In this document: piece after piece, positions 11,988-46,932 of the stretch
Layout of the letters: each line of letters opens with the position of its first letter
Numbering within the stretch: the first letter of the stretch is position 1
NCBI GenBank assembly: GCA_004321885.1
Contig: SCQK01000014.1
Span: forward strand, 1 to 64,000
Length of the DNA stretch: 64,000 nucleotides
Source: Patescibacteria group bacterium
GTDB taxonomy: Bacteria > Patescibacteriota > Patescibacteriia > Magasanikbacterales > GWA2-37-8
Reading direction: 5' to 3'
Notes under the pieces: generated by a model
Database searches by the model: none
What the model was told of the DNA's origin: nothing
What the model saw: only the letters and a program-made list of their open reading frames with translations
Position numbers and translations under genes: made by a program

Positions 11988-12021
11988 TCTCTCCCCCTTT
12001 TTAAGGAGGAGACGAAGAGGG
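11988..12021. repeat. C-run/G-run palindromic intergenic element (family A), copy after gap
   Basis: TCTCTCCCCC-tttttaa-GGAGGAGACGAAGAGGG; the G arm provides AGGAGG before the next ATG. Confidence 0.45.
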
Positions 12022-12027
12022 TAAACA

Positions 12028-12618
12028 ATGCTTATGCTAAAAATTAAGAATGATGAACTGATAAAAGAATTAGTCGGTTCCGAGGCGGAATTTCCCAAAT
12101 ACGCTACCCAACTGATCAATCTTGCCAATCAAAACGCCCAGGGTACGAGACCAAAAGTTGTTGGTCAATTGTCCGAGTTGATTAATGAGTGCCCTAAGAA
12201 GACGTATGAGGGTTGGCGCGACTGGTACCTCGCCAAACATCCGGACGCGATCAAAAATGCCGTGGTAAAGATAAATCAGATGATGGAGAATTTTAAGTTG
12301 GCCATCAAATCCATCAATAAAAAAATGATTGAAAAATGGGTTAGGGATTTAGTACTGGAAAAAACTTATGTGGGGTTGAGATTCCAGGAAGCCATATTAA
12401 AAAAAGTGGCGCAAATCAAAAAAATAAGCTATCAATTATCAACCGCCCAAGAAGAATCCTGCGGGATAGACGGATATGTCGGCGGTGAAGCCGTCTCTGT
12501 TAAGCCTATGTCGTACAAGACAAAGGCCGCTTTGGGAGAAACATTAGGAGGAAAAATAATTTTTTACGAAAAGAAAAAAGACGGCTTAAACATAGACGCG
12601 GATTTGATATTAAAATAA
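12028..12618 (+). CDS. Candidate type II restriction endonuclease, partner of the adjacent methyltransferase
   Basis: 196-aa ORF ending 4 nt before the MTase start and co-oriented with it; no recognisable housekeeping domain. Assignment is by operon context only. Confidence 0.4.
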   Translation: MLMLKIKNDELIKELVGSEAEFPKYATQLINLANQNAQGTRPKVVGQLSELINECPKKTYEGWRDWYLAKHPDAIKNAVVKINQMMENFKLAIKSINKKMIEKWVRDLVLEKTYVGLRFQEAILKKVAQIKKISYQLSTAQEESCGIDGYVGGEAVSVKPMSYKTKAALGETLGGKIIFYEKKKDGLNIDADLILK

Positions 12619-12622
12619 TAAC

Positions 12623-13576
12623 ATGGGCACGAATCATAGAATAATTATTGGCGATTCGCGGCAGATGTCGGAGCTTAGCGACAAATCTGTCCATCTTATT
12701 ATAACCTCACCGCCTTATTGGCAGATAAAGGATTATGGCAGTGCCGATCAGATAGGTTTTAACGATACCTACGAGGAATACATAAAAAATTTGAATCAGG
12801 TGTGGTCCGAATGCGCGCGCGTTTTGCATGATGGTTGCCGCATGGTGATAAATATCGGCGATCAATTTGCCAGGGCCGTTACATACGGGAGGTATAAAGT
12901 GATACCCATTCGCGAAGAGATAATCAAATTTTGCGAATCAATCGGCTTTGATTATATGGGCGCGATTATTTGGCAGAAAGTGACGACGATGCACACTACC
13001 GGCGGCGCCTCAATTATGGGTTCTTTTCCGTACCCGAGGAACGGCATGATAGCGATAGATTATGAGTTCATATTGCTTTTCAAAAAGCTGGGCAAGGCGC
13101 CCAATAATGTGACTGCGGATATAAAAAAGAAATCAGAGATGACGAAAGAAGAATGGAGAGAATACTTTACCGGACATTGGAATTTTGTTGGCGAGAAGCA
13201 AAACGGCGGGCATATCGCGATGTTTCCCGAAGAGCTACCCAAGCGCATTATAAAAATGTTTAGTTTTTTTGGGGAAACGGTGCTTGATCCGTTTTTGGGC
13301 AGTGGCACGACAACAAAGACAGCCCGGGAGTTAGGCCGCAATTCTGTTGGGTACGAAATCAATAATGATTTTTTGTCGGTTATTAAGGAAAAAGTCGGCA
13401 TTAATAAAATGTCGCTCTTCAATCGCGATACGAAGTATGACGTCGTAAATCAGCAGAAAAATTACGGGCTGAAACAAAAAGGTATTGAAAAAAAAGATTC
13501 CATAATTAAAAATAGAGTTAACGATCCGAATTTTTGGAAATTATTAAAAGAGAAAAGATGCAAGGTCGTCACTTAA
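12623..13576 (+). CDS. DNA methyltransferase, beta-class amino-MTase (N4-cytosine or N6-adenine; SPPY catalytic motif)
   Basis: Motif IV LIITSPPYW near the N-terminus and motif I FLGSGTT near the C-terminus (circular permutation typical of the N6_N4_Mtase family). Confidence 0.85.
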   Translation: MGTNHRIIIGDSRQMSELSDKSVHLIITSPPYWQIKDYGSADQIGFNDTYEEYIKNLNQVWSECARVLHDGCRMVINIGDQFARAVTYGRYKVIPIREEIIKFCESIGFDYMGAIIWQKVTTMHTTGGASIMGSFPYPRNGMIAIDYEFILLFKKLGKAPNNVTADIKKKSEMTKEEWREYFTGHWNFVGEKQNGGHIAMFPEELPKRIIKMFSFFGETVLDPFLGSGTTTKTARELGRNSVGYEINNDFLSVIKEKVGINKMSLFNRDTKYDVVNQQKNYGLKQKGIEKKDSIIKNRVNDPNFWKLLKEKRCKVVT

Positions 13577-13582
13577 AGAATT

Positions 13583-14023
13583 ATGCAAAACTGTTGTAAC
13601 ATTTGGGAAGTTTTTGACGAGGAAAATAATCTGATAAAAGAATATCAGCATTGGAAGTTGTTGATAAAAAATAGGGGACCGAGGACTTTGGGAAATTCTG
13701 TCGCTGTATTAAAAAGACACATTTTAAGATTTTCCGATATTACAGATGAAGAAATGTTGGATTTCGCCAAACTCGTGCGTGAAACAGAAAACGCTTTGAA
13801 AAAATCCTTCAATTACGACAAAATTCATTGGCTGATGTACATGACTAAAGACCCGCACGTTCATTTTCACATTTTTCCAAGATACAATGAGGACAAAAAT
13901 TTTGGTGGTATCCAGTGGATGGATGGACTGCGAGAGCCAGACCCTCTAAAAATGGAACAAAAAAATCTGTCTCAAGAACAATTAAACGAAATAAAAGAGG
14001 AAATAAAAAAGAATTTCTTTTAA
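13583..14023 (+). CDS. HIT-family (Fhit-like) nucleotide hydrolase
   Basis: Histidine triad HVHFHIFPR matches the HxHxHxx motif of Fhit/Hint. Confidence 0.55.
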   Translation: MQNCCNIWEVFDEENNLIKEYQHWKLLIKNRGPRTLGNSVAVLKRHILRFSDITDEEMLDFAKLVRETENALKKSFNYDKIHWLMYMTKDPHVHFHIFPRYNEDKNFGGIQWMDGLREPDPLKMEQKNLSQEQLNEIKEEIKKNFF

Positions 14024-14026
14024 TAT

Positions 14027-14062
14027 GCCCCCCTTTAGGGGGAGGACAGAGGAGGGGGTTTT
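14027..14062. repeat. Family A C/G palindromic element
   Basis: CCCCCCTTTAGGGGGAGGACAGAGGAGGGGGTTTT. Confidence 0.5.
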
Positions 14063-14068
14063 CACGAT

Positions 14069-14419
14069 ATGTCTGAAATAAAAATAATTGACACAAAAAT
14101 TTCAATAGCCGAATTGAAAGAAGCCGCCGAACAGGTTTTTGGTGATTTTGTGAAAGTGGTGGTAGATTTGGAAAGAGTAAAAATGGCGATTGGCGGAGAA
14201 CTGCATGCCGACGAGGAGGCCGTACTTTTAGGGAACGGCTCCAAACAGGAAAATTTGTGGGGGATAAATTTGTATCCGGCTAATTTCGGCGGCGAAGATT
14301 TTATTGAGTTTGATTCAATGGTAAACATTAAGCCGGGCCTGGGCAATTTTTCGCGAGCAATAAAGAGCGAAGAAGTCAGAAAGAAAATAAAAGAGGCGGT
14401 GGCGAAGCTGGTTGGATAA
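14069..14419 (+). CDS. Hypothetical small protein
   Basis: 116-aa ORF in the co-oriented gene array, flanked on both sides by C/G palindromic repeat elements. Confidence 0.5.
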   Translation: MSEIKIIDTKISIAELKEAAEQVFGDFVKVVVDLERVKMAIGGELHADEEAVLLGNGSKQENLWGINLYPANFGGEDFIEFDSMVNIKPGLGNFSRAIKSEEVRKKIKEAVAKLVG

Positions 14420-14420
14420 A

Positions 14421-14458
14421 TCCCCCTCTCCTTTATTAAGGGGAGGGCGGGGGAGGGG
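14421..14458. repeat. Family A C/G palindromic element
   Basis: TCCCCCTCTCC-tttattaa-GGGGAGGGCGGGGGAGGGG. Confidence 0.55.
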
Positions 14459-14468
14459 TAGTTAGTTT

Positions 14469-14807
14469 ATGGCTGAATACATCCACCAAAATTTATCTGT
14501 CGGCCGATGGTTTGAACTTAGTTTATGTGAACAATTGGGCAATGTGGGAAGCGAAGTCGGACGCGCGGCCAATTGGCGACGGAAAAATCAGGGCGAGCAA
14601 TCGGAAAAGGCGATAGAGCGGGGGATGGAATTGCTGGATTTGACGATTGCGGACGCGCGTTGGGCGGGCGCGCGCAGAAAAGAGCTATGTCGCGCGCGAG
14701 AATTGATTAAAGACGTGTTTTACGGCGACAATCAATATCACGATTCGCCGGAAGCGCTGGAAAAATATTTTTTCCAGTTCGCGTTGGCGGCGAGAAGAAA
14801 CAATTAA
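14469..14807 (+). CDS. Hypothetical small protein, possibly an all-alpha NTP-pyrophosphohydrolase (MazG-like) fold
   Basis: Segments EQLGNVGSEVGRAA and MELLDLTIADARW loosely resemble the paired EExxE/ELGD helices of MazG-like proteins; the match is weak. Confidence 0.35.
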   Translation: MAEYIHQNLSVGRWFELSLCEQLGNVGSEVGRAANWRRKNQGEQSEKAIERGMELLDLTIADARWAGARRKELCRARELIKDVFYGDNQYHDSPEALEKYFFQFALAARRNN

Positions 14808-14826
14808 ATTGCGGCTTAAAAGCAGT

Positions 14827-16674
14827 ATGACAGAAGGAACAACTCTCAACCGCGCTATCAAAAATCAAGAAATTTGGAAGTTTAATGTTGAAAAAGATGG
14901 TCTCTATTTGATTACAATTAACGCGCGATGCAAAAATTGGCTTCAGAGTTTTCGGCGTCTATTCAACGACGATGATTTGGCGGTTCAAATTGATGATCAT
15001 TTGCTTGCTGAATTGGCGGGGAAAAAACGTGAATTCAATCAGCCGGGCGCTTGGAATGGGAACGACTTGAAAAACAATTTCAAAACCGTTCTGATGTTGC
15101 TCCCCTTAAAATCCGGCACCCACGAAATCAAATTTTGGACAGACGGGGCGCCATACGTGGAAACGCCGAAGATAAAAGAAATCAAATTAACGCGAGAAAT
15201 ATTGATTGACGCGCCGGATGCTAAAGCAGCGGACTTAATCATTAAAAATATTTTAGCGGAAAATGTAGAAGTTATCGGCAAGGGAGCGACAAAAAAGATT
15301 GAAGTGGTCTACGCGCAAGATAAAATTTTCGCCTCTCCCTTAAAGAGAATAAAAGATCAACCGATTTCTTCCGTTAAAATCCGGCTCAAAAAAGAGGAAT
15401 TAAAATACAAAGTCGGAAAAATCAAATTATACAAAGATTTAGTTCTGTCAGATGAGGTAAATTTACGCGCAAGGCCCAATGATGGTTCAGAAATAATCGC
15501 GCGCATTCCTGATGGGGAAGAAGTAAATATTATTAATGAACGGGCGATGGAAGACGACCGTCAAAAATCCTATATAGCTTCATATTCTTATATTTGGCAT
15601 GAAGTTCTTTGGCAAGACAAATTCGGACAAGAGAAGAGCGGGTATGTGCTTTCTTCTTTTGTGGAAATACAGGGACAAGAGAGACAGACGATAATAAATC
15701 TCATAACAACCAAAAGTCGCGAACAAGGCGTGGACCCAAATATAATGTTGGCGATCGCTGGGCAAGAGTCGCGCTTCAAGCCATTTGCTGTGCCATCGAC
15801 GGGGCCGAAGGGCGTTTTTCAACTATCAGGCGATACAGCCGAGCGGGTGGGTGTGAAAGATCAATTTAATTTTTTTCAAAACGTGGAAGGTGGCGTAAAA
15901 TATTACAAAATAATTGAAAATCAATTCGCTGGTCGCGGGAATGTTTTGGAAAGAAGATTGTTGGCTTGGCATGACGGGCCAAGCAAGATACCCGAAAGAG
16001 GAAAGGTTGATCTAAGTAAGTTCTCTGCCGAGTCGCAAAAATTTGTGAAAAATGTTTTGCAAAACATTAAACGGAAGGACTGGTTCCATCTCTCTTCTTC
16101 CGTTATAGCGATTTTATTCGCTATCGCCGGTTCTTTTGTGGGTTATTTACAACACGATATATCAAAATTTGAGGAAAGCGCGGCTATATCTGTCGCCCAG
16201 GCGGCCGAAAGCGACAATTTTAGAAAATTTATTTTTCACGATGAAGCCGTGCCTTTGATTGTCGTCAAAAGCATCGGTACATTTCGTCCATTTCCGAATT
16301 TTCGCGCTGATTTTTATTATAGAAATAGCTGGGGCATGTCGTTTCATGAAACTTTAGACGGCTATTTAGACGATGCCGGATGGACATATTTGGGAAGACA
16401 AAAACTAATTTTTTGGGTGAGGCGCGAAGAGGGTCATTATCTGCCTACTTCATTTTTTATGTTTGATAATAGCACGGAAACTTTTAAAATGATAAAGTTT
16501 ATCGATCGTGATGGTAGAATTTACAATGATGTCAGCGCGCCTTATGATATTTCAACAGAAGGCGACGAGAGCTTTCTGAGCAAAGAAATTCGGCAAACTT
16601 GGGGTGACGTAGGCAAACCCGAAGTGAAGGAGTATAAGTATGATTGGGAGAAGAATGTGTTTAATGAGATATAG
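14827..16674 (+). CDS. Membrane-anchored lytic transglycosylase (SLT domain) with an unrecognised N-terminal domain, an SH3b-like segment and a C-terminal domain beyond one TM helix
   Basis: SLT catalytic region AIAGQESRFKPFAVPSTGPKGVFQLS; TM segment WFHLSSSVIAILFAIAGSFVGYL; N-terminal ~130 aa are shared with the 44340..46337 paralog. The track start 14809 is TTG; the first ATG is 14827. Confidence 0.7.
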   Translation: MTEGTTLNRAIKNQEIWKFNVEKDGLYLITINARCKNWLQSFRRLFNDDDLAVQIDDHLLAELAGKKREFNQPGAWNGNDLKNNFKTVLMLLPLKSGTHEIKFWTDGAPYVETPKIKEIKLTREILIDAPDAKAADLIIKNILAENVEVIGKGATKKIEVVYAQDKIFASPLKRIKDQPISSVKIRLKKEELKYKVGKIKLYKDLVLSDEVNLRARPNDGSEIIARIPDGEEVNIINERAMEDDRQKSYIASYSYIWHEVLWQDKFGQEKSGYVLSSFVEIQGQERQTIINLITTKSREQGVDPNIMLAIAGQESRFKPFAVPSTGPKGVFQLSGDTAERVGVKDQFNFFQNVEGGVKYYKIIENQFAGRGNVLERRLLAWHDGPSKIPERGKVDLSKFSAESQKFVKNVLQNIKRKDWFHLSSSVIAILFAIAGSFVGYLQHDISKFEESAAISVAQAAESDNFRKFIFHDEAVPLIVVKSIGTFRPFPNFRADFYYRNSWGMSFHETLDGYLDDAGWTYLGRQKLIFWVRREEGHYLPTSFFMFDNSTETFKMIKFIDRDGRIYNDVSAPYDISTEGDESFLSKEIRQTWGDVGKPEVKEYKYDWEKNVFNEI

Positions 16675-16676
16675 GT

Positions 16677-17075
16677 ATGTCCAAATTCGCGGAAAAATTT
16701 TGGGGGGTGATGTTGAGCAAAAGCGTGTTGATTATCCTACAAATTTTATTGTGGATAGTAGCATTTGTTTTAATTTATTCAAGGATCTCTGGTGAATTAA
16801 CGCAACCCCTCGTATCTTTGCAAGTTTTTGTAATTTTTGTTTATTTATATCCGCTTAGTATTTTAGTATTCTTCAGCATGTTCAGTGCTGATTTTTCGCA
16901 GGCATCTGTTCTTCTTTTACTGGCTTATTATTTTTTGATGGTCTATTCCTTAACGAAGATAAATAAAGAGACTAGGTACAAAAAATATTTTGCATTTGCT
17001 TATTTACTATTTATGGTTTTGAGTTTTATAGGAGTAATTATATCTTATTTATCTCTCAATTTTGTTAGTATTTAA
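16677..17075 (+). CDS. Small polytopic membrane protein, hypothetical
   Basis: Four hydrophobic helices; start overlaps the upstream stop by GTATG. Confidence 0.5.
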   Translation: MSKFAEKFWGVMLSKSVLIILQILLWIVAFVLIYSRISGELTQPLVSLQVFVIFVYLYPLSILVFFSMFSADFSQASVLLLLAYYFLMVYSLTKINKETRYKKYFAFAYLLFMVLSFIGVIISYLSLNFVSI

Positions 17076-17078: not shown

Positions 17079-18413
17079 ATGAGAATTTTAACAACGGAAA
17101 CGACAAAGAAGGTGGGGGAGGAAGTAATGTTAAAGGGCTGGGTGAACGCGCGCCGAGACATGGGCAAGGTGACGTTTTTGGATTTGCGCGACCGCAGCGG
17201 CGTGGTGCAAATTGTTTGCTTTCCGGCGGACCTGGACGAGCAGTCGCTCGCCATCGCCAAAGAAGCGCGCGGTGAATGGGTGCTGGAAATCCGCGGTATT
17301 GTGAACAAGCGCGGGGTCAAACAAATCAATCCTAATCTCGCCACCGGCGAAGTAGAAGTGCTGGCTAAGGAAATACAGGTTTTGGCCAAAGCCGAGGCCC
17401 TGCCCTTGGATTTGGCGGAAGAAAAAATCGGTTTGGACGTGCATCTGGATAATCTGCCTTTAACTTTACGCGCGCCAAAGTGGAGAGCCCTATTCAAAAT
17501 CCAATCCGAAATCGTGGAAGCCTTTCGCGCGTTTTTGCGCGGACAAGGGTTTACCGAATTTCAATGCCCCAAAATCGTGGGCGGCTCCACCGAGGGCGGC
17601 GCCAATGTTTTTAACATTGATTACTTCGGCCACAAAGCGTTTCTGGCCCAAAGCCCGCAATTTTACAAACAAATAATGACGGGCGTGTTTGAGCGCGTGT
17701 TCACGGTCGGTAATGTTTATCGCGCCGAGGAGCACGCCACCACGCGCCACATCAACGAATACACCAGCATGGACTTGGAGATGGCCATGATTAAAGACCA
17801 TACAGATGTGATGAAATTGGAAACGGAATTTTTGCGCTATCTGCTTGAGTATTTGAAAAAGACCGTATCCGAAGAATTGAAAGCGTGTAATTACGAAGAG
17901 CCGCTCTTACCCAAAGAGATTCCGGTTTTTACTTTGCGCGAAGTACAGAAACTTATCAAAAAACACACCAAGGTTGACCACATCGCCGAGCCGGATTTGG
18001 AACCGAACGAAGAAAGATGGATTTGCGAGTACGCCAAAAAAGAATTGGCTTCGGATTTTGTTTTTGTCACGCATTATCCGACCGCCAAGCGCCCGATGTA
18101 CACCTATCCGGATGAAAAAGACCCGGAAACGACCAAAAGTTTTGATTTGCTTTTTAAGGGCGTGGAAATCACCACCGGCGGCCAGCGCATTCACGATTAC
18201 CAGCAGCTTTTGGGCAACATCAAAAAGTGGGGGCTGAAGCCGGAAAATTTTTCTTTCTATTTGGAAGCGTTCAAATACGGTATGCCGCCCGAGGGCGGGC
18301 TGGCTATCGGGCTGGAACGGCTCACCGCGCGATTACTGGGGGTAGAAAATGTAAAAGAGGCGACATTGTTTCCCAGAGATTTGAACAGAATTGACTTACC
18401 GTTATCGTCGTAA
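17079..18413 (+). CDS. aspS: Aspartyl-tRNA synthetase, short archaeal/eukaryotic-type form
   Basis: N-terminal OB-fold GWVNARRDMGKVTFLDLRDRSG and class II core motifs (FKGVEITTGGQRIHDY, GMPPEGGLAIGLERL); ~440 aa length. Confidence 0.85.
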   Translation: MRILTTETTKKVGEEVMLKGWVNARRDMGKVTFLDLRDRSGVVQIVCFPADLDEQSLAIAKEARGEWVLEIRGIVNKRGVKQINPNLATGEVEVLAKEIQVLAKAEALPLDLAEEKIGLDVHLDNLPLTLRAPKWRALFKIQSEIVEAFRAFLRGQGFTEFQCPKIVGGSTEGGANVFNIDYFGHKAFLAQSPQFYKQIMTGVFERVFTVGNVYRAEEHATTRHINEYTSMDLEMAMIKDHTDVMKLETEFLRYLLEYLKKTVSEELKACNYEEPLLPKEIPVFTLREVQKLIKKHTKVDHIAEPDLEPNEERWICEYAKKELASDFVFVTHYPTAKRPMYTYPDEKDPETTKSFDLLFKGVEITTGGQRIHDYQQLLGNIKKWGLKPENFSFYLEAFKYGMPPEGGLAIGLERLTARLLGVENVKEATLFPRDLNRIDLPLSS

Positions 18414-18447
18414 TTGGAAATTGGTCATTGGAAATTTTAAATGTATG
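18414..18447 (+). promoter_or_regulatory. Family C motif TTGGAAATTGGTCATTGGAAATTTTAAATGTATG (direct repeats of TTGGAAATT flanking GGTCA), ending in ATGTATGTTT
   Basis: Shares the TTGGTCATTG core and the ATGTATGTTT start context with 43187..43228. Confidence 0.4.
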
Positions 18448-21210: not shown

Positions 21211-21738
21211 ATGAGTTTTGTACGGCGTCACAGAGCTAAAGCGGTTTTTGCGCTTCTCGTGGCTATCATTGCCGGCGTCGGCATTTTTATTTGGCAAAAA
21301 TATCCTTTTGGCGTGAAGCAATACTATACCATTAAACTTGGAATGCCGGCCGCGGAAGGAGCCGGGAGCCGTACTCTTTGGAAGGAGCCGCTTTTTAATA
21401 AGGTATGGGAATCACAGTTTTATGTGTACGTGATTAATGACATTCCAAAGTGTATTGGTTCAAGTTGTGAACTTGGAGGAAAGTTTATTGAATGTCTCGG
21501 CGGCTGGATTTCGGCTTATAATATCGTAACAGAAGAATTTGATTATGGTCTTCGTGACGCTGGAGCTGACATGAGAAAATCCGTTATCACTATTGCCGAC
21601 AAAGACGCTAAGATAGTCGGCATTTATCCGGGCGCGCGTGTCAAAAATCTGCCGTATATTATGCGTAATCATCGTGACCTCGTGTCGGAGGAAGTATTTA
21701 ATGGGTGTTCGGGTGAATTGCCAGGGAGGTGGAAATGA
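21211..21738 (+). CDS. Hypothetical membrane-anchored protein
   Basis: N-terminal TM (AVFALLVAIIAGVGIFIW) followed by a Cys-containing soluble domain. Confidence 0.5.
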   Translation: MSFVRRHRAKAVFALLVAIIAGVGIFIWQKYPFGVKQYYTIKLGMPAAEGAGSRTLWKEPLFNKVWESQFYVYVINDIPKCIGSSCELGGKFIECLGGWISAYNIVTEEFDYGLRDAGADMRKSVITIADKDAKIVGIYPGARVKNLPYIMRNHRDLVSEEVFNGCSGELPGRWK

Positions 21739-22926: not shown

Positions 22927-23667
22927 ATGTTAGACAGTCTGATTCTAAATAAAAAGTCCATAGAGAGTATTTATAAAACTGTCAAAGATTTTCACGAAAA
23001 ATATTTGAAGAAGTTTGGCGTAAAATTGCCAAAACTATACAATTCCGGCGGAAAATTTTCTAAAGACGCGCTCGTTCTGGTTTATTTGACGTATGATTAT
23101 CCAAAAACAAGAAAAGTTTCAAAAGAAGAACTGACAAAATTCATAAGAAGCCACTATCCGGACACAAATGACGTACAGCAGGCCAGACATTTGGGGGCGC
23201 AAGCTGGCTGGTGGATAGTGGCCGGCGGGCGAGATAATATCGTTTTGGATATAAAGCGAGGATATTATCAACTTTATACCCTGGAGCAGCCTTACCCGGG
23301 ATTTAAGAAAGGCCATAGAATTTTAGAAACCGATAATTGGGCCGAAATAAAAGAAAAATACAATTTCCGTTGCGCCACTTGCGGTTCGCAGGAAGGGAAA
23401 CCCCATTTTCATTGGCCGGCGACAAAAACAATTTTGCAAAAAGCGCATATGGACCCAAACAAGCCGTTTGTTGCCGGAAATATAATCCCGCAATGTCAAA
23501 AGTGTAATATGGGCGATAGAAACAGGTGGGTTTATGATGATAAAGGAAGGGTTATAAAATTAGCAGATGCAAATTTTGTTAAAAATTTTGATAAGGATGT
23601 AAGGCAAAAAATTTACAAGATTTTATACAACGAATTTAACGGAAAAAAACCTAATTCCAAAAGATAA
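22927..23667 (+). CDS. Candidate HNH-family type II restriction endonuclease
   Basis: C-terminal CATCGS...HFHW...QKAHMDPNK...NIIPQCQKCN is a CxxC/H/N/CxxC HNH (beta-beta-alpha-Me) pattern; it sits immediately upstream of and co-oriented with a DNA MTase. Confidence 0.5.
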   Translation: MLDSLILNKKSIESIYKTVKDFHEKYLKKFGVKLPKLYNSGGKFSKDALVLVYLTYDYPKTRKVSKEELTKFIRSHYPDTNDVQQARHLGAQAGWWIVAGGRDNIVLDIKRGYYQLYTLEQPYPGFKKGHRILETDNWAEIKEKYNFRCATCGSQEGKPHFHWPATKTILQKAHMDPNKPFVAGNIIPQCQKCNMGDRNRWVYDDKGRVIKLADANFVKNFDKDVRQKIYKILYNEFNGKKPNSKR

Positions 23668-23670
23668 TTT

Positions 23671-24669
23671 ATGAAAAATAATAAGTTCATAAATAAAATT
23701 ATTTGTGCGGATACGTTAGAATTACTTCCCCAAATTGAGGATAATTCTATTGACGTTGTTTTGACCGACCCGCCGTATTTTTTGGACAAGCTGGATAATA
23801 ACTGGGATTACGAAAAAGTCTCCAATCAAAACAATCAATATGCTATAAAATCTTTGCCTGCCGGCATGAAATTTGACAGAGAGCAGGGGAAAAGATTTTA
23901 TGCTTGGTATTTAGATATTTCAAAAGAAATTTTTAGGATTTTAAAACCGGGTGGATTTTTCTTTTCATTTTCCAGTCCTCGGCTTTACCACCGAATGGCT
24001 TCGGCAATAGATGACGCAGGTTTTGAAATAAGAGACGCGTTTATGTGGCTTTATACTCAAAATCAAGCCAAAGCGATGGGCGTTGATCATTTTATTAAAA
24101 AAATGAATATAGACGAAAAGGCCAAAGAAAAAATCAAGGAAAAACTGAATGGCTGGAAAACCCCGCAAATAAAATCCTGTTTTGAACCAATCGCAATGGC
24201 GCAAAAACCCGCCGACCAGACATATTTAAGTAATATGTTGAAGCACGAAGTGGGTTTGTTTAACACAAACGTGCGGATTGGCGATAATATGTATCCGGCA
24301 AATGTTTTTACGATAGAAAGCATCAACGAACTAGTAGATAAAGCGTTTTTATTGCCAAAACCGACAAAGAAAGAAAAGGGAGAATACAACGACCACAAAA
24401 CCGTGAAGCCGTTGGCTATTTGCGAATATTTAATTAAACTTTCCGCTTTTGCAAAAAACGCGGTTGTCCTTGATCCGTTTGTCGGCAGCGGGACAACCGC
24501 GGTGGCGGCAAAAAAATTGGGTAAGAATTATATTGGCATTGACGCGAACGAGAAATACGTGGAACTTTCCGAGCGCCGGCTGAAAGATTTGGATGAAAAA
24601 CAGGATTTATTCCAGATTGTTGAGAGAGAGAAAATAAAAAATTTACAAATGGAATTACAAGTTTTATAA
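23671..24669 (+). CDS. DNA methyltransferase, beta-class amino-MTase (DPPY)
   Basis: Motif IV VVLTDPPYF near the N-terminus and motif I FVGSGTT near the C-terminus. Confidence 0.85.
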   Translation: MKNNKFINKIICADTLELLPQIEDNSIDVVLTDPPYFLDKLDNNWDYEKVSNQNNQYAIKSLPAGMKFDREQGKRFYAWYLDISKEIFRILKPGGFFFSFSSPRLYHRMASAIDDAGFEIRDAFMWLYTQNQAKAMGVDHFIKKMNIDEKAKEKIKEKLNGWKTPQIKSCFEPIAMAQKPADQTYLSNMLKHEVGLFNTNVRIGDNMYPANVFTIESINELVDKAFLLPKPTKKEKGEYNDHKTVKPLAICEYLIKLSAFAKNAVVLDPFVGSGTTAVAAKKLGKNYIGIDANEKYVELSERRLKDLDEKQDLFQIVEREKIKNLQMELQVL

Positions 24670-24685
24670 ATTAATTTTTAACTAT

Positions 24686-25522
24686 ATGCCAAAAATAAAA
24701 ACAGGGGCGGCGGAGGCGCCGGAAGAAATTAGAGAAATTTCGGCGCGAGAGCGCCAGCATTATTGTTGCGGCGCCGGCTTTGGAAAAAAAATAATCATGA
24801 CCCTGCTGGGCGTGCTCATCGTGTACGCGATATTTTTCCTGGGCACGGTGGTGCGCAACAACATACGAAAATATAATTTTATCGGCAAGGCCGATAAGAT
24901 GGAGCGCACTATTTCGGTGAACGGTTATGGAAAAGTAACGGGAAGCAACAATTTGGCCGTGACGACAATCGGTTTTTCCAACGCCGATAAAGATATTGCC
25001 CTGGCCCAGCAAGCCAATAAAAAAGTGATGGACGCGGCGCTCGCCGAGCTCAAAAAATTGGGCGTGGATGAAAAAGATTTGCAGAGCGATTACTCGGTTT
25101 ATCCGGAATATGATTATACCGAGAAGGTGAAGCAATTTAAGGGCTATCGCGTGTCGCATAATGTGACAGTCAAGATTAGAGACCTGACTAAAGTGGATAA
25201 AGTTTTGGGACTGGCCGGAAAATACGGCGTCAACGAGATTAGCGGTTTGACGTTCACCATAGACGATGTGGAAAGCTTAAAAGACCAGGCGCGCTCCAAA
25301 GCCGTGGCTGACGCGCAAAAGAGGGCGCAAGTATTGGCGCAAAGCCTGGGCGTGAAGCTGGTAGCCATGATTTCCTACTATGAATCTTCCGGCGATTATC
25401 TGCCGCTGATGAAGTACGGCGCCGAAGGAATGGGAGGAGGGGGAATGATGCCCGAAGTGGCCAGCGGCAGCAAAGACGTGGTCGTAAATGCCAGCGTTAC
25501 TTACGAGATTGCCCCACGATAA
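24686..25522 (+). CDS. SIMPL-domain (BP26/OMP28-like, DUF541) membrane-anchored protein
   Basis: The TM anchor is followed by ISVNGYGKV...DIALAQQANKK...VSHNVTVKIRDL...ARSKAVADAQKRAQVLAQSLGVKL, typical of the SIMPL family. Confidence 0.65.
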   Translation: MPKIKTGAAEAPEEIREISARERQHYCCGAGFGKKIIMTLLGVLIVYAIFFLGTVVRNNIRKYNFIGKADKMERTISVNGYGKVTGSNNLAVTTIGFSNADKDIALAQQANKKVMDAALAELKKLGVDEKDLQSDYSVYPEYDYTEKVKQFKGYRVSHNVTVKIRDLTKVDKVLGLAGKYGVNEISGLTFTIDDVESLKDQARSKAVADAQKRAQVLAQSLGVKLVAMISYYESSGDYLPLMKYGAEGMGGGGMMPEVASGSKDVVVNASVTYEIAPR

Positions 25523-28331: not shown

Positions 28332-28335
28332 TTTA

Positions 28336-28379: not shown

Positions 28380-28387
28380 TATATATT

Positions 28388-31141: not shown

Positions 31142-31240
31142 GTATTTTTTAGCTAACTTAACACAAACTTCCCGCGCAAAGGCGAGAGAATATAGAAGTT
31201 TATCATAATAGAGCCAAAAGTCAACCTTGACACGATGTCG

Positions 31241-31342: not shown

Positions 31343-31471
31343 AAGCCGCTGCGAACACATCCAGTCCGCGCGAGCGCCGTTCAAATTTCTTCAGCCCGGC
31401 AATCACTAAGCATTTGCTTTTTTCCCTTTTTTTTAGTAAAATAAAGCCTACGAAATACAGTAATTCAACCT

Positions 31472-31861: not shown

Positions 31862-31865
31862 AATT

Positions 31866-35895: not shown

Positions 35896-37086
35896 ATGAA
35901 AATCAACACAGACGCCAAAAAAATAGAAGAATTTTTAACGCGGGGAGTGGAGGCGCTCTATCCCAGCAAAGAGGAGTTTAGGAAAATACTTTCTTCCGGA
36001 AAACGATTGCGCGCTTATCAGGGTTTTGACCCGACCGGTCCATATTTGCATGTTGGCCATGCGATTGGCATCCGGGCGCTGCGTATTTTACAGGAGCTGG
36101 GACATGAAGTGATTTTTTTGGTAGGCGATTTTACGGCAACCATAGGAGACCCCGATAAGGATACGACAAGAGAAATGCTTACTGATGAGCAGATTGAAAA
36201 AAATATGTCCGGGTGGAAAAAGCAAGCTTCACAGTTGATTGATTTTAGAGGAAAGAATCCGGTACAATTCAAACGTAATTCGGAATGGCTCGAAAAATTG
36301 CGTTTGAGAGACGTTCTCCGGATGATGTCAAAAACAACTTTACAAAGAACCATGGAAAGAGATTTGTTTGATAGACGTTTGAAAGCTGCGGATCCGATCC
36401 GCTTGCATGAGGTGGCGTATCCCGCGATGCAAGGTTATGACGGAGTGGCGATGGACGTTGACATAGAGATTGGAGGAGCCGATCAGACTTTTAATATGTT
36501 GACTGGTCGTGTTTTGACCAAGGCATATTTAAATAAGGAAAAATTCGTGCGGGCTAATAGAATGATGAACGCGCCGGATAAAATTACAATGAGTAAAACC
36601 AAGGGTAACGGCATAAATTTATCCGATGAACCGAAGGATATGTACGGCAAGGCCATGTCTTATGCTGATAGTGAAATAATTAATGGTTTGGAATTGTTGA
36701 CTGAATTGCCAATGGCTAAAGTTGAAGAAATTAAACAATCTTTAGAAAGAGGAGAGAACCCCATTAAATACAAAAAACTGATGGCTTTTGAGATAGTAAA
36801 AATTATCAAGGGCGAGCAGACGGCTCTGAAAGCCCAGCAACATTTTGAAAGCGTTTTTCAAAGCAAGGCTAAACCGGAAGGGATGCCGGAAGTGAAGCCG
36901 AGCGTTTATGATATTATCGCGGTGCTCGTTGAATCAAAAATATGTCCGAGTAAAGGAGAAGCTCGGCGCGTCATCGCCCAGGGTGGAGTAAAAATAAACG
37001 ACAAAAAAGTTGAAGGGATTGAGGCGAGAGTGAAAGCGGGGGATGTGGTGCAGAAGGGGAGCCGGTGGTTTGTGAGAGTTCTATGA
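35896..37086 (+). CDS. tyrS: Tyrosyl-tRNA synthetase
   Basis: GFDPTGPYLHVGH, a KMSKS-like MSKTKG, and a C-terminal S4 domain (GEARRVIAQGGVKINDKKV). Confidence 0.85.
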   Translation: MKINTDAKKIEEFLTRGVEALYPSKEEFRKILSSGKRLRAYQGFDPTGPYLHVGHAIGIRALRILQELGHEVIFLVGDFTATIGDPDKDTTREMLTDEQIEKNMSGWKKQASQLIDFRGKNPVQFKRNSEWLEKLRLRDVLRMMSKTTLQRTMERDLFDRRLKAADPIRLHEVAYPAMQGYDGVAMDVDIEIGGADQTFNMLTGRVLTKAYLNKEKFVRANRMMNAPDKITMSKTKGNGINLSDEPKDMYGKAMSYADSEIINGLELLTELPMAKVEEIKQSLERGENPIKYKKLMAFEIVKIIKGEQTALKAQQHFESVFQSKAKPEGMPEVKPSVYDIIAVLVESKICPSKGEARRVIAQGGVKINDKKVEGIEARVKAGDVVQKGSRWFVRVL

Positions 37087-38822
37087 AGATAATTACAGAC
37101 AAAATTGAGAAGTTTTTAACGGAAGCCGGAATCGTCGGTGAAATTAAATTTAAAAAACCCGATCCAAAAATATTGGATGTTTTTGATTACGATATTGCTA
37201 TTCCTTGTTTTAATTTAAAAACGAGGGTGCAAGATAACGCGGAAGGGGTCATGGTTGCGCAAAGGATTGTTGGTAGTTTGAAAAGCGCAAGGACAGAGCT
37301 GCCGTTTTTAGATGAAGTTAAACAAGTAAGTTCATACGTTAATATTACGTTAAATGCAGGCGAAATAGCTAATTTAGTTTTGCGGCAAGCCACAAAAAAA
37401 GATTTTGGCGCCAGCAAAACGGGCAAAGGAAAGAAAGTAATGGTGGAGTTCGCGCATCCCAACACGCACAAGCAATTTCACATCGGCCATTTGCGCAATA
37501 TCTGCACCGGCGAAAGCGTGGCGCGTATTTTGGAAAACGCCGGCCACAAAGTTATCCGCGCGAACTATCAGGGCGATGTGGGGATGCACATTGCAAAATG
37601 CCTGTGGGGCATTTTGAAATTTCCAATTTCCAATTTTCAATTTCCAAAAGCGATTGACGAGCGGGTGAAATTGCTTGGCGAAGCGTACGCGAAAGGGGCG
37701 CTGGCTTACGAAGAAAGCGAACTGGCCAAAAAAGAAATTGAAGTCATCAATGAAAAAATTTATTCTAAAAAAGATAAAGATATAAATAAACTTTACAAAG
37801 AAACGCGCGAATGGAGCTTGGAATATTTTGGTAAAATTTACAAACGAGTCGGCAGTAAGTTTGACCGGCTGTATTTTGAATCAGAGACATTCGCGCCGGG
37901 CAAGGACATAGTGCTGGTCGGTTTGAACAAAGGGATTTTCAAGGAAAGCCAGGGCGCGGTAATTTTTGAGGGAGAAAAATACGGCTTGCACAATCGCGTG
38001 TTTTTGAACAGCCGCGGCTTGCCGGTTTACGAAGCCAAAGATTTGGCGCTGGCGAGACTGCAATTTCAGGAATACAAACCAGAATATATTTTACACGTCG
38101 TGGCCAAAGAACAGACAGATTATTTCAAGGTTGTTTTCAAAGCCATGGAGTTTACTTTGCCCGAGAGCAAAGGCCGGGAAAAGCATTTGGTCTATGGCTG
38201 GGTGAGTTTGAAAGAAGGCAAGATGAGTTCGCGTTCGGGCAACGTGGTTTTGGGCGAGTGGCTTTTGGATGAAGTAAAAAAGAAAGTGGCTGAAGCAATG
38301 AAAGAGCACAATGTGCGGGATAGGGAAGGGGTGCTGGAAAAAGTGGCTATGGCCGCGGTGAAGTATGCTTTCCTGCGAACAAGCATCAGCAACGATATTG
38401 TTTTTGATATAAACCAGTCGGTGAGTTTAACCGGGGACAGCGGGCCGTATCTGCAATACATTGTCGCGCGCATTAGTAGCATCCTCAAAAAAGCAGGCAG
38501 GGGTTCGTTTGGTCTCCCCTTTAGAAGGGGAGATGCCCCGCAAGGGCAGAGGGGTATTGAACCGGCAGAAAAATCACTCCTTCTTTCTCTTTCCGAATTT
38601 CCCGAGGTCGCCCAAAGCGCGGCCGAAGAAACAGACCCGTCCAAAATCGCGCATTATCTGCTGGGACTGGCGCAATCATTCAATAGTTTTTACGGCCAGT
38701 GTCCGGTATTACCGGCCGATGAAGAAATGAAAAAATTCAGATTAGCGATAATTAGGGCGGTAAAAAATGTAATGGAAAAAGGATTGCGTTTGCTCGGCAT
38801 TGAGAGCGTGGAAGAGATGTGA
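37083..38822 (+). CDS. argS: Arginyl-tRNA synthetase (carries an in-frame ~27-aa insertion derived from a repeat element)
   Basis: FHIGHLRN...NYQGDVG HIGH region and a C-terminal DALR anticodon-binding domain ending GLRLLGIESVEEM; ATGA overlap with tyrS. Confidence 0.85.
   Translation: MKIITDKIEKFLTEAGIVGEIKFKKPDPKILDVFDYDIAIPCFNLKTRVQDNAEGVMVAQRIVGSLKSARTELPFLDEVKQVSSYVNITLNAGEIANLVLRQATKKDFGASKTGKGKKVMVEFAHPNTHKQFHIGHLRNICTGESVARILENAGHKVIRANYQGDVGMHIAKCLWGILKFPISNFQFPKAIDERVKLLGEAYAKGALAYEESELAKKEIEVINEKIYSKKDKDINKLYKETREWSLEYFGKIYKRVGSKFDRLYFESETFAPGKDIVLVGLNKGIFKESQGAVIFEGEKYGLHNRVFLNSRGLPVYEAKDLALARLQFQEYKPEYILHVVAKEQTDYFKVVFKAMEFTLPESKGREKHLVYGWVSLKEGKMSSRSGNVVLGEWLLDEVKKKVAEAMKEHNVRDREGVLEKVAMAAVKYAFLRTSISNDIVFDINQSVSLTGDSGPYLQYIVARISSILKKAGRGSFGLPFRRGDAPQGQRGIEPAEKSLLLSLSEFPEVAQSAAEETDPSKIAHYLLGLAQSFNSFYGQCPVLPADEEMKKFRLAIIRAVKNVMEKGLRLLGIESVEEM
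38514..38554 (+). repeat. Family A-like C/G palindromic element located inside the argS coding sequence, in frame
   Basis: CTCCCCTTTAGAAGGGGAG followed by GC-rich sequence; it encodes GRGSFGLPFRRGDAPQGQRGIEPAEKS at a position where ArgRS proteins normally have no such segment. Confidence 0.5.
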
Positions 38823-38837
38823 CATGCCATATAATAT

Positions 38838-38872
38838 TCCTCTCCCTCTTAGGAGGAGGATAGAATAGGGGG
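38838..38872. repeat. Family A C/G palindromic element after argS
   Basis: TTCCTCTCCCTC-tta-GGAGGAGGATAGAATAGGGGG. Confidence 0.5.
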
Positions 38873-40896: not shown

Positions 40897-40932
40897 GCCT
40901 TGCGACCGTCGTGTCGCAAGGCATTTTTTTTT
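40897..40932 (+). terminator. Strong rho-independent terminator (GCCTTGCGAC-cgtcgt-GTCGCAAGGC plus T9)
   Basis: Perfect 10-bp GC-rich stem followed by nine T, 40 nt after the stop of the GC-rich gene. Confidence 0.8.
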
Positions 40933-43186: not shown

Positions 43187-43228
43187 TTGGAATTTGGTCA
43201 TTGAATTTTGGGGCTTTTCAGTTTTATG
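43187..43228 (+). promoter_or_regulatory. Family C motif TTGGAATTTGGTCATTGAATTTTGG...TTTTATGTATGTTT upstream of and including the start of the DAGK-like gene
   Basis: TTGGTCATTG core and identical ATGTATGTTT start context. Confidence 0.4.
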
Positions 43229-43987: not shown

Positions 43988-43996
43988 AATAGAGAA

Positions 43997-44083
43997 GCCC
44001 GGGTGGCGAAACTGGAAGACGCATATCCTTGAGGTGGATACGGCCGCAAGGCCTTGGAGGTTCGAGTCCTCTCCCGGGCACCA
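43997..44083 (+). tRNA. tRNA-Leu (anticodon GAG), class II with long variable arm, CCA encoded
   Basis: Acceptor stem GCCCGGG/CCCGGGC, anticodon stem TATCC/GGATA with loop TTGAGGT, variable arm CGGCCGCAAGGCCTTG, T-arm GGAGGTTCGAGTCCTCT, and 3' ACCA. Confidence 0.85.
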
Positions 44084-44092
44084 AATAAACTT

Positions 44093-44335
44093 ATGCGCAT
44101 CATTATTGGCATCATCATGGCGCTCGCGGGCGTGCTCGTGATAATAAAATCCGAGTGGTTTATCGCGAACTTCGGCGCCAGCGCCTGGGCCGAAGAAAAG
44201 CTGGGCACGAGCGGCGGCACGCGCCTAATGTACAAGCTGTTGGGGCTATCTTTTATTTTTATCGGCTTCCTTTTGATTACAAATTTAATCGGCGGATTTT
44301 TGATGGCGACAGTGGGCAGATTGTTTATCAGATAG
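44093..44335 (+). CDS. Small two-TM membrane protein, hypothetical
   Basis: MRIIIGIIMALAGVLVII...; the track start 44054 lies inside the tRNA, so the first ATG after the tRNA is used. Confidence 0.4.
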   Translation: MRIIIGIIMALAGVLVIIKSEWFIANFGASAWAEEKLGTSGGTRLMYKLLGLSFIFIGFLLITNLIGGFLMATVGRLFIR

Positions 44336-44339
44336 TAAT

Positions 44340-46337
44340 ATGATTCTGATAAAAAAAGACGACGAACTTGACATCGCGATAAGGAAAAGTCACAGTTACG
44401 CATTTTCAACGCCCCATAGCGGGTTGCATTTAATTGAAATCGTCGCGAAAGCCAATAGTTGGTGGCAAAATTTGAAAAGTTTTAAGTCATTTTTAAACGA
44501 CGATGATTTGGTGGTGAAAATAGATGAAACGGAATTTCCAAAATTAAGCGGCCGGAAGGGGTTATTCAATGGAGAGGCGGCGTGGAACGGCGACAACCTG
44601 AAAGGAAATCTAAAGACGGGAATATTTTTGGTTAGTTTGGCATCGGGCGCTCACGTGATAAATTTTTTCGCCGATCAAAAGCCGGTGTTAAAAGGTGTAA
44701 GAATTTATAAAATCGAGCAGGGAGAACCGTATGTGCCGGAAAAAAATAATCCGCCACAAGACGGAGACAGGCGGCAGTGGATGACAATCGCCCTGATTGA
44801 TTTGAGTTTGAAAAGTTTGTTTATCAGCGCTGTCGTTGGCGCTCATCAGAGAGATGACAGCGATATCAAGTTGATTGTTGACGGAAAAATTATACAAAAT
44901 GAGCAAAAAAATTCACACAAGAATTGGTTTTGGTGTGGTAATTTATCAAAAGGAGAACCAAGGGAACTCAACAAAGAGTTGAATCTGCCGAAAGGGTTGC
45001 ATTATGTGGAATTATGGGCGGACAAGACGCCAAAGTTATTGGAATTAAGAATCAATGTCGATAAAGATGATTCCAGAATTAAAGCCAAAATTATTTGGCA
45101 AACCGCCGCGTTAAGGAGAGAGCCAAATCAAAAGGCAGATACTGTAGCTGAGATTTCCGAAGGCAAACAAGTAATAATATTAGAAAAGGCGGTTTTGGGG
45201 AAAAGACCCGCGAACGTAAATGGCGTGTTACTTTCTTCCGACCGTTGGCACAAGGTTGAGTATGAAAACAATGTCGGGTATATTTATTCGGAGGCGGTAG
45301 AGATTGAGGGAGAGGATCCAAAAACGATTGAAAAATTTATTTTGAGCAAAGCCGAAGAAGTGGGAGCAGACGGATGCCTGATGGCGGCGATTGCCAAACG
45401 TGAATCGCATTTTTTCCCCTATGCGGTTTCCGGCGCTGACGCGAAGGGTTTGTTTCAAATGGTAAAAACGTCCCTGACCGATGTAAACGATATTTTTGAC
45501 AAAAAAATTGATAATCTTTTTAATATCGCGCAATCTACAGAAGCGGCAATTTTGTATTTTACAATAATTAGAGAAAGATATAAAAATAAGAACGATTTCC
45601 TTAGAAGATGCTTAGCCGCATGGAATTGGGGCAAAGGAAACGTTGATCCAGGTAATTCATTTTTAATGAAAAAATTGCCTGGCGAAACCCGGATATTTAT
45701 CAACGAGGTTCTAAAAAATTATAATGATTGCAAAAGTAGGTCTGTTTTAAAAGGAAAAATAAATTTATTATTCTTATTGATGAGCGGTTTTTTTATTTCC
45801 GCGATATTATTATCGTTTGCCATTTTTTTTGCTTTCGATGACAAAAATTATAAAGAGCCGCCGTCATATTATGGCGACAATTTTGTTTTAGCCGAGCATG
45901 AAATAGACGTGGATGGCGATGGAACAAAAGAAAAACTGGTCGTCATTAGAGACAAATTAAACTCAACATTTGGCATGACAAGAAACATTTTAGTGAGAAG
46001 TAACGGAAGGTTGCGTGAGTTGTCAAAAGAGGAGGGAAATTTTCTTTGGTGGAAGGTGGGCGATTTCAACGATAACGGCAAAGTTGATATCGCAATTCAT
46101 TATGGATATACCGGTAGCGGTGAGTTTGGAAAGTTTTATTTACAAGAGTGGAACGGAAAAGATTTTACGACTGTATTTATCAGAGAAGATGTTGACAATA
46201 AAGTAAATTTTGTTGATTTGAATCACGATGGAATGGAAGAGATTATTTATACTTATCGGCTGTCAAAGTGGAAGCCAGATAGGTATGATATTTATCAGTG
46301 GAATGCTTTTTCTTCCAAATTAATCCTATATAAGTAA
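44340..46337 (+). CDS. Membrane-anchored lytic transglycosylase (SLT domain), paralog of 14827..16674, with FG-GAP-like C-terminal repeats
   Basis: SLT region MAAIAKRESHFFPYAVSGADAKGLFQM; TM LLFLLMSGFFISAILLSFAIFFAF; C-terminal DVDGDG, DFNDNGKVD and DLNHDGMEE motifs; N-terminal domain shared with the paralog. Confidence 0.7.
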   Translation: MILIKKDDELDIAIRKSHSYAFSTPHSGLHLIEIVAKANSWWQNLKSFKSFLNDDDLVVKIDETEFPKLSGRKGLFNGEAAWNGDNLKGNLKTGIFLVSLASGAHVINFFADQKPVLKGVRIYKIEQGEPYVPEKNNPPQDGDRRQWMTIALIDLSLKSLFISAVVGAHQRDDSDIKLIVDGKIIQNEQKNSHKNWFWCGNLSKGEPRELNKELNLPKGLHYVELWADKTPKLLELRINVDKDDSRIKAKIIWQTAALRREPNQKADTVAEISEGKQVIILEKAVLGKRPANVNGVLLSSDRWHKVEYENNVGYIYSEAVEIEGEDPKTIEKFILSKAEEVGADGCLMAAIAKRESHFFPYAVSGADAKGLFQMVKTSLTDVNDIFDKKIDNLFNIAQSTEAAILYFTIIRERYKNKNDFLRRCLAAWNWGKGNVDPGNSFLMKKLPGETRIFINEVLKNYNDCKSRSVLKGKINLLFLLMSGFFISAILLSFAIFFAFDDKNYKEPPSYYGDNFVLAEHEIDVDGDGTKEKLVVIRDKLNSTFGMTRNILVRSNGRLRELSKEEGNFLWWKVGDFNDNGKVDIAIHYGYTGSGEFGKFYLQEWNGKDFTTVFIREDVDNKVNFVDLNHDGMEEIIYTYRLSKWKPDRYDIYQWNAFSSKLILYK

Positions 46338-46338
46338 T

Positions 46339-46887
46339 ATGTCTCACTCCGGCACGGCGCTTCTCAATCCATACAAGATTTTCGCGGACATCAAATTGGC
46401 CAAGGGCATGCGCGTGGCTGATTTGGGTTGCGGCCGCACCGGTCATTTTGTTTTTCCGGCGGCCAAGACCGTGGGCGACACCGGCATTGTTTATGGAGTG
46501 GACGTGATGAAGGATGTCCTGGAAAATATTAAGAGCACGGCGCGCGCCGAGGGTTGCGCCAACGTGCAAACTGTCTGGTCCGACCTGGAGCGCGCGGGCA
46601 AGACGCCTCTGCCTCCGGCCAGCGTGGATGCGTGTTTTTTCGTCAATGTTCTGTTCCAGGTAAAAGACAAACGTTCCGCCATTGCCGAAGCGGCCCGCTT
46701 GCTCAAAAAACAGGGCCATCTGGTGATAATTGACTGGCAAAAAAAATTGGGGATGTTGGGTCCCGCGCCAGGGCAAATGTTAATTATTGACACGCTCGTT
46801 GACTTGGCCGGCCAGAGCATGTTAAAATTGGCCAAACAATTTCAGGCCAGCGATTATCATTTCGGCTTAATTTTCGCAAAGGAATAA
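46339..46887 (+). CDS. Class I SAM-dependent methyltransferase
   Basis: Motif I VADLGCGRTG and motif post-I VYGVDV. Confidence 0.7.
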   Translation: MSHSGTALLNPYKIFADIKLAKGMRVADLGCGRTGHFVFPAAKTVGDTGIVYGVDVMKDVLENIKSTARAEGCANVQTVWSDLERAGKTPLPPASVDACFFVNVLFQVKDKRSAIAEAARLLKKQGHLVIIDWQKKLGMLGPAPGQMLIIDTLVDLAGQSMLKLAKQFQASDYHFGLIFAKE

Positions 46888-46893
46888 AACCTC

Positions 46894-46932
46894 GCCCCAC
46901 CCCTCTTAATCAAGGGGAGTGAGGGGGAGGAG
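46894..46932. repeat. Family A C/G palindromic element
   Basis: CGCCCCACCCCTC-ttaatcaa-GGGGAGTGAGGGGGAGGAG; a GGAGG lies 9 nt before the downstream ATG. Confidence 0.55.

Follow-up and report, generated by a model that had tools for sequence, protein, structure and literature searches.

What are the short palindromes that lie between a stop codon and the neighboring gene in a Patescibacteria genome, and what do they do there? In the 64,000-nucleotide stretch analyzed here (positions 1 to 64,000 of contig SCQK01000014.1, forward strand; hereafter the window), seven such blocks, designated W1 to W7, were found, each with a C-rich arm, an AT loop, and a G-rich arm. A preliminary description had considered them either combined terminator and ribosome-binding modules with an occluded Shine-Dalgarno (SD) sequence or a small mobile repeat that resembles the repetitive extragenic palindromic (REP) elements and donates SDs. 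The blocks are enriched in the window, are absent from the orthologous junctions of relatives, and put an SD-like sequence at working spacing. We give about an even chance to the interpretation that they are very short palindromic repeats of one lineage-specific family, similar to REPs or to miniature inverted-repeat transposable elements (MITEs), inserted just after stop codons, with an SD of their own that replaces coupling by overlap or short spacer and is partly masked by a hairpin.

The seven blocks followed a shared plan over 27-44 nt. A pyrimidine tract rich in C and a short AT loop lead to a purine tract rich in G that contains GGAG(G); after a spacer of 1-7 nt comes a second G-run, followed by a T and A/T-rich sequence. 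The last G was followed by T in all seven blocks and by TA in five of them, and the flanks were AT-rich. In W4 and W7 there are two C tracts, and both G tracts are buried; W1, W2, W3, W5, and W6 have surplus G. Within the window, the blocks were not scattered at random positions or over both strands; all were intergenic, lay near stop codons as single copies, and had one orientation, with the G excess on the + strand (including W5 and W6). A regular expression for the whole architecture returned exactly W1-W7 on the + strand of the window, plus W4, which is symmetric, on the - strand. All copies had been described as starting within a few nucleotides of a stop codon, and this was the case for six of the seven (1-5 nt), the distance in W6 being 14 nt. 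The consensus originally given, CCCTCYCC-N2-8-GGGGAGGG, had one literal match only (W3, 14424-14447), so the near-identity claimed for the arms was overstated; the sequence of C arm, AT loop, G arm, and extra G-rich sequence was nevertheless present at all seven sites.

The same junctions were examined in loci from genome and metagenome collections, retrieved via protein anchors and designated here by L-numbers. The syntenic relatives L082 (77% iPGM-2 identity) and L083/L084 (72%) share with the window the genes for GAPDH, AspRS, ScpA, ScpB, S11 peptidase, PGK, SIMPL, enolase, iPGM-1, iPGM-2, the convergent DHH protein, ValRS, TyrRS, and ArgRS. No C/G element was found in L082, L083, and L084 (about 20 kb each), where the junctions consisted of 0-14 nt of A/T sequence without an SD. 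In the window, W4 (28336-28379, + strand, as are all blocks) lies between the tandem iPGM paralogues (stop 28329-28331, ATG 28388), and the iPGM-1/iPGM-2 spacer measures 56 nt, whereas it was 1-14 nt long and lacked an SD in 12 loci (L004, L005, L006, L014, L015, L016, L021, L022, L082, L083, L166, and L167). W5 (29968-29994) fills a 30-nt gap between iPGM-2 (stop 29963-29965) and the convergent DHH gene on the - strand (stop 29996-29998); in L082, L083, L166, and L167, these genes were separated by 0 nt or overlapped. W1 (11986-12021) separates the GAPDH gene (stop 11981-11983) from an MjaI-type restriction endonuclease gene (ATG 12028), a distance of 44 nt as against 9-13 nt between GAPDH and the next gene in relatives. 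W3 (14421-14458) stands between the DUF5674 gene (stop 14417-14419) and its partner gene (ATG 14469). The two genes form a conserved pair with a median spacer of -2.5 nt over 28 loci, 13 of them with an ATGA overlap, compared to 49 nt here. When each block was cut out in silico, an AT-rich spacer of 3-14 nt was left, as in relatives; excision thus restores a spacer of ancestral length, and the blocks behave as discrete insertions.

The remaining three blocks are placed as follows. W2 (14028-14058) follows a HIT-domain gene (stop 14021-14023) and precedes the DUF5674 gene (ATG 14069), W6 (38837-38872) begins 14 nt past the ArgRS stop codon (38820-38822) at a convergent junction, and W7 (46890-46932) lies between an S-adenosylmethionine (SAM)-methyltransferase gene (stop 46885-46887) and a small membrane-protein gene (ATG 46940). 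In W1, the sequence is TTTCTCTCCCCC-TTTTTAA-GGAGGAGA-CGAAGA-GGG, followed by TAAACA-ATG; its minimum free energy (MFE) hairpin has -12.4 kcal/mol, and the GAGGG ends 7 nt 5' of ATG. W2 reads CCCCCC-TTTA-GGGGGAGGA-CAGA-GGAGGGGG, then TTTTCACGAT-ATG, and W3 reads TCCCCCTCTCC-TTTATTAA-GGGGAGGG-C-GGGGGAGGGG. The two C-tracts and two G-tracts of W4 fold into one long hairpin of -29 kcal/mol. W5 shows the order stop, C arm, loop, and G arm on both strands, with no gene downstream. W6 (TTCCTCTCCCTC-TTA-GGAGGAGGA-TAGAATA-GGGGG) is followed by a weak GGGC..GCCC-T6 hairpin, and W7 (CCTCGCCCCACCCCTC-TTAATCAA-GGGGAG-TGA-GGGGGAGGAG) folds entirely into one hairpin (-25.8 kcal/mol; z = -3.4). A candidate eighth copy is intragenic, in the ArgRS gene (38513-38565, + strand), and consists of TCTCCCC-TTTAGAA-GGGGAGA, a small hairpin (TGCCCCGCAAGGGCA), and GAGGGG-T. 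The linker that contains it is hypervariable in length and exceeds that of most homologues by about 8 aa; excision of the candidate would leave this linker too short.

W1, W2, W4, and W5 were present with identical sequence in the independent Logan assembly of SRR8426592, whose contigs measure 3-5 kb. Logan contig L085, which runs from GAPDH to HIT, ends about 30 nt beyond W2, at window position 14089, and the DUF5674 gene between W2 and W3 is on no contig on record. The blocks may possibly disrupt short-read assembly.

With respect to ribosome binding, the best anti-SD duplexes of the 58 genes in the window had a median of -3.25 kcal/mol, and nine genes reached -8 kcal/mol or better; five of these nine are downstream of blocks (W1, W2, W3, W4, and W7), in agreement with the earlier impression that strong SDs are otherwise scarce. 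A GGAGG or AGGAGG had been noted 9-17 nt before the ATG in five copies. The in-stem (proximal) GGAGG was measured at 9-18 nt from ATG, roughly the same range, and a further, distal G-run was located 6-10 nt 5' of the next ATG in five blocks. Native SDs of the window are of the AAGGAG type (genes at 1179 and 60428), in contrast to the G-run type of the blocks, and no SD was present in the orthologous genes examined in relatives. W5 and W6, at convergent junctions, kept the second G-run and the trailing T with no downstream gene to serve. SD supply is therefore not the only property of the blocks, and the retention of the full architecture at these two sites argues that it is intrinsic to the element rather than the product of selection at individual sites. 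One further strong-SD score, that of a listed open reading frame (ORF) at 44054-44335, was spurious, as this ORF overlaps a tRNA-Leu(GAG) gene at 43997-44083.

Strict perfect-stem scans lose most copies, and looser tract-based detectors were applied instead. On the + strand of the window, 12 C-rich pyrimidine 8-mer tracts were detected, seven of them intergenic, with intergenic DNA amounting to 2565 nt or 4% of the 64 kb (binomial p = 1.1e-7). Eight arm pairs had the C arm first and none had the G arm first; local shuffles (40- or 100-nt blocks) gave about one, with a maximum of five. The architecture expression matched seven times in the 64-kb window, compared to 18 times in 1.94 Mb of other Patescibacteria DNA (about 15 after subtraction of tRNA-like and duplicate-locus matches). 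A repeat search grouped W2, W3, W4, and W7 as one family (D4) with 68-81% ungapped identity, a level no higher than that of chance families from the same search; loop and arm strings, e.g. TTATTAAGGGG(G)AGGG, were shared by W3, W4, and W7. Outside the window, same-plan hairpins were found in L002, a syntenic locus with an iPGM-2 71% identical, at another junction (AspRS/ScpA), and L020 had two copies between iPGM1 and iPGM2. Scattered same-plan copies were present in L087, L128, L160, and L164. Some other Patescibacteria contigs hold C/G-hairpin repeat families of their own: L128 has two near-identical hairpins of about 40 nt (15887-15909 and 18143-18165), each ending in GGGGAGGAG 7-9 nt 5' of ATG, and in L081 a longer repeat with nested hairpins is present twice (12443-12465 and 13985-14006).

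If the blocks are inserted repeats, each would have entered an ancestral junction, either an AT-rich spacer or an overlap, between a stop codon and the gene that follows. Since this genome and its relatives otherwise rely on SD-less tight or overlapping junctions, such an insertion would break the ancestral stop-start coupling. In the mRNA, the block is predicted to form a stable hairpin of -12 to -29 kcal/mol whose beginning would be covered by the terminating ribosome, and the surplus or distal G-run, 6-10 nt before ATG, could act as a strong SD. Coupling would be replaced by an SD-led start that the hairpin partly masks. The block would be tolerated inside operons because it carries its own ribosome-binding site (RBS) and folds away. 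Copying or transposition would account for the spread of the copies, and the hairpin may modulate the use of the G-run as an SD.

Several observations weigh against this interpretation. The similarity among the copies is limited to low-complexity C/G runs, and whether a C arm was combined with an arbitrary G arm or with its own made little difference to pairing (-13.9 vs -13.1 kcal/mol, permutation p = 0.17); with interchangeable arms and similarity of this kind, common descent of the copies is not proven. The + and - strands fold with similar energies, so action at the RNA level is not demonstrated, and together with the lack of copy-specific arm pairing this means that covariation evidence for a selected RNA structure is absent. 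RNAalifold on a MAFFT alignment of the copies gave a consensus of only 5 bp because the loops were out of register. Thermodynamic modeling did not show the SD switching cleanly on and off, or being unmasked when a ribosome terminates. Just seven copies are visible within the 64-kb window, Pfam scans of the window ORFs revealed no transposase, REP-associated tyrosine transposase (RAYT), or integrase, and no clear target-site duplication or conserved tag was seen at the blocks. Finally, the closest relatives show 71-77% protein identity, a distance with which gradual growth of the spacers in situ is also compatible.

The closest functional precedent is the REP element. REPs are present in tens to hundreds of copies per genome, often as inverted pairs (bacterial interspersed mosaic elements, BIMEs), and RAYT is an IS200/IS605-like Y1 transposase. 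Like the RAYT-mobilized REPs and BIMEs of Enterobacteria and Pseudomonas, the blocks are short imperfect palindromes (about 20-45 nt for the REPs; seven copies of 27-44 nt here) that are strictly intergenic, repeated, and located at gene 3' ends inside operons, and their distribution is patchy and lineage-specific. Unlike REPs, they have homopolymer-like C and G arms, occur as single copies and not as inverted pairs, and bring an SD to a working distance from the following start codon. Neither GTAG nor CGTC was found 5' of the stem in any of the seven blocks; GTAG was present only 3' of W3 and of L002a. Among the earlier proposals, the REP-like repeat donating SDs fits best, in that the blocks are absent from the same junctions in every syntenic relative examined and bring an SD to genes that lack one there; REP/RAYT membership itself is not demonstrated, given that the 5' GTAG tag is lacking and that the window showed no RAYT gene. 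According to PMC12306157, REPs are often found no more than 15 nt from a stop codon, where they affect translation and mRNA stability: in Escherichia coli, REPs so placed stall ribosomes and down-regulate translation (Liang et al., 2015, as cited there), and REPs stabilize the upstream mRNA (Newbury et al., 1987, as cited there).

A search of Rfam over the window gave no match at the gathering thresholds, and only chance-level matches were obtained around the blocks at E values up to 5. No description of such elements in the candidate phyla radiation (CPR) was found in the literature. The Correia elements of Neisseria, the pneumococcal BOX and RUP elements, and the Rickettsia palindromic elements (RPEs) are MITE-like repeats that donate signals. 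They share with the blocks the character of small, non-autonomous palindromic insertions beside genes (within genes in the case of RPEs) that bring regulatory signals. The blocks differ in being three to five times shorter and in donating an RBS and not a promoter or RNase site; in addition, their arms are themselves the inverted repeats, with no terminal inverted repeats separate from the stem and no consistent target duplication evident.

A wider version of the insertion hypothesis would make the blocks a new class of minimal 'plug-in RBS' palindromes in Patescibacteria, that is, selfish hairpins of about 30-45 nt at the stop-start junctions of SD-less, tightly coupled operons that rewire coupling to hairpin-gated SD use. 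Such elements would survive through their own SD and by folding out of the way, and they would spread by some single-strand or hairpin-specific mechanism; the same-plan copies in unrelated CPR contigs (L002, L020, L087, L128, and L164) would then be members of the class. We regard this generalization as unlikely.

The strongest alternative is that the blocks never moved but arose in situ as hairpins for translational coupling or SD masking, each junction having independently gained a strong SD and an anti-SD-like C tract. The downstream cistron would be translated mainly when the stem is opened by a ribosome that completes translation of the upstream gene, as in the classic SD-sequestering intercistronic hairpins of MS2 phage and of E. 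coli atpHA and rplJL, where an anti-SD-like pyrimidine stretch near the upstream stop codon likewise pairs with the purine SD of the next cistron. In six of the seven blocks, the C arm begins 1-5 nt past the stop codon and hence inside the footprint of the terminating ribosome, and the C-first order that the mechanism requires holds throughout the window (8:0). The whole SD region is buried in W4 and W7, in hairpins of -26 to -29 kcal/mol. The distal G-run had an unpaired probability of 0.08-0.46 overall and was mostly paired in W2, W4, and W7 (0.08-0.21), with values of about 0.45 in W1 and W3. The occlusion of the SD proposed in the preliminary description thus applies to the proximal GGAGG, which is inside the hairpin, but less so to the G-run at working distance, and masking appears to be partial in the model.

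A terminating ribosome was modeled, in purely thermodynamic terms, by forcing the stop codon and 5-12 downstream nt to be single-stranded. The distal G-run was clearly freed in W2 only (from 0.18 to 0.66), and W4 and W7 re-paired, which is not the clean unmasking expected of a coupling hairpin. The blocks also differ from the classic hairpins in being a module repeated at seven junctions. Other points argue against in situ coupling devices: at W5 and W6 the architecture is complete although no gene lies downstream; arm covariation specific to each copy is absent; the common strings of W3, W4, and W7 suggest copying; and relatives, in which the blocks are missing, handle the same junctions with 0-14 nt and no SD, which makes the need for a device unclear. 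Overall, we consider it improbable that coupling hairpins of independent origin explain the blocks.

A further view is that the main role of the blocks lies at mRNA 3' ends, as weak or U-tail-less terminators or attenuators, as barriers to 3' exonucleases, or as stallers of the terminating ribosome that lower upstream expression, with the G-runs being incidental. All seven blocks lie at most 14 nt past a stop codon, and the stalling and the mRNA stabilization attributed to REPs (PMC12306157) are in line with such a role. The hairpin of W5 is bidirectional, exactly fills the convergent junction, and is followed by TTTATT on the + strand, and W2 is followed by TTTT. The blocks also share with intrinsic (Rho-independent) terminators a G+C-rich hairpin just past the stop codon. 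However, none of the seven was called by a scan for a stem plus T-run and none has a U-tract, whereas the window does contain canonical U-tailed terminators at other places (8310-8372, 10848-10987, and 40897-40922, the last of these called by the scan). Five blocks are 6-10 nt from the next start codon in apparent operons. The terminator part of the preliminary description is not supported by these results, and the presence of a second G-run at SD spacing in all copies is hard to call incidental. A 3'-end function as the main role therefore seems quite unlikely to us.

Under the last alternative, the blocks would work as DNA, serving as a site for protein binding or recombination, a cruciform, purine-mirror-repeat H-DNA, or a G-quadruplex, with a possible tie to nearby gene insertions. 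W1 borders on the left a 5-kb segment (12028-17075) that is inserted with respect to L082 and L083 and contains W2 and W3, W6 follows an ArgRS of another type than that of syntenic relatives (35% identity vs 47-82% for neighbors), several G parts are near-mirror repeats (judged by eye in W2, W3, and W7), W3 has a canonical G-quadruplex motif, and both strands fold with similar energy. We consider this alternative very improbable, because W4 and W5 flank a native, syntenic iPGM-2 (77% identity, no outlier), other inserted genes (21211-21738, 23671-25522, and 31235-33156) have no blocks at their edges, the G3+ quadruplex motif occurs in one of seven copies only, and no recombinase gene is nearby. 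The G-quadruplex was accordingly rejected as a family feature, and the blocks were rejected as boundaries of inserted cassettes, the identity of iPGM-2 to its L082 counterpart being in line with that of its neighbors. Travel with DUF5674 was also rejected: the detectors gave no match at DUF5674 flanks in 80 loci, and the spacer was short or overlapping in 24 of the 28 that were measurable.

As to the setting, the iPGM-2 of the window shares 70-77% identity with proteins that bear Magasanikbacteria or Patescibacteria names, and its ArgRS is NCBI TAN32649.1, on a 159,463-bp contig, the source being a metagenome-assembled genome of Patescibacteria (CPR) with a relationship to Magasanikbacteria. 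Nearly all genes are on the + strand, the intergenic spacers are tiny and A/T-rich, and operon ends show ordinary U-tailed terminators followed by TATAAT boxes. The tandem iPGM paralogues (26787-29965) are 42% identical to each other, an arrangement kept in many Patescibacteria loci. The 5-kb insertion at 12028-17075, between GAPDH and AspRS, encodes the MjaI-type restriction endonuclease, an N4/N6 methylase, the HIT protein, DUF5674 and its conserved partner, an SLT/SH3 protein, and a 132-aa ORF. Two further restriction-modification-like insertions are absent from L082/L083: one at 22927-24669, in which an N6_N4 methylase adjoins a 246-aa protein without assigned function, and one at 31472-33156, with a split methylase, a HARE-HTH protein, and a weakly HincII-like ORF. 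AspRS (17079-18413) and ArgRS (37065-38822) show 33-35% identity to their syntenic L082 orthologues, compared to 47-82% for neighboring genes, and ArgRS is 58-60% identical to other Magasanikbacteria-type enzymes; these values suggest an exchange of two synthetase types within the clade. The region 1179-10847 holds a 2376-aa ORF and then an 824-aa FN3-domain protein with three tandem 306-nt repeats at 8793-9700.

A second leader motif, unrelated to the blocks, is common to three junctions. The 10-mer TTGGTCATTG has four exact copies, all on the + strand (18421-18430, 43194-43203, 56027-56036, and 56041-56050), with about 0.1 exact matches expected as estimated from the length and 4^10. Every copy is located just 5' of a start codon, and three of the downstream genes open with ATG(TATG)TTT.

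Genomes of CPR/Patescibacteria are small, come from uncultivated organisms, and are largely SD-free, and to our knowledge translation initiation inside their operons is poorly understood. The locus offers a natural before/after pair in this respect: relatives have overlaps or spacers of at most 14 nt without an SD, and the same junctions here hold a folded block of 30-45 nt with a strong SD. If the blocks are merely local regulatory hairpins, they would be a modest addition to the known translational coupling devices. If they are mobile, they would exemplify a selfish repeat that is neutral or even useful inside an operon, they would provide a compact natural part combining an RBS with a hairpin, and they would indicate that SD usage can be gained piecemeal.

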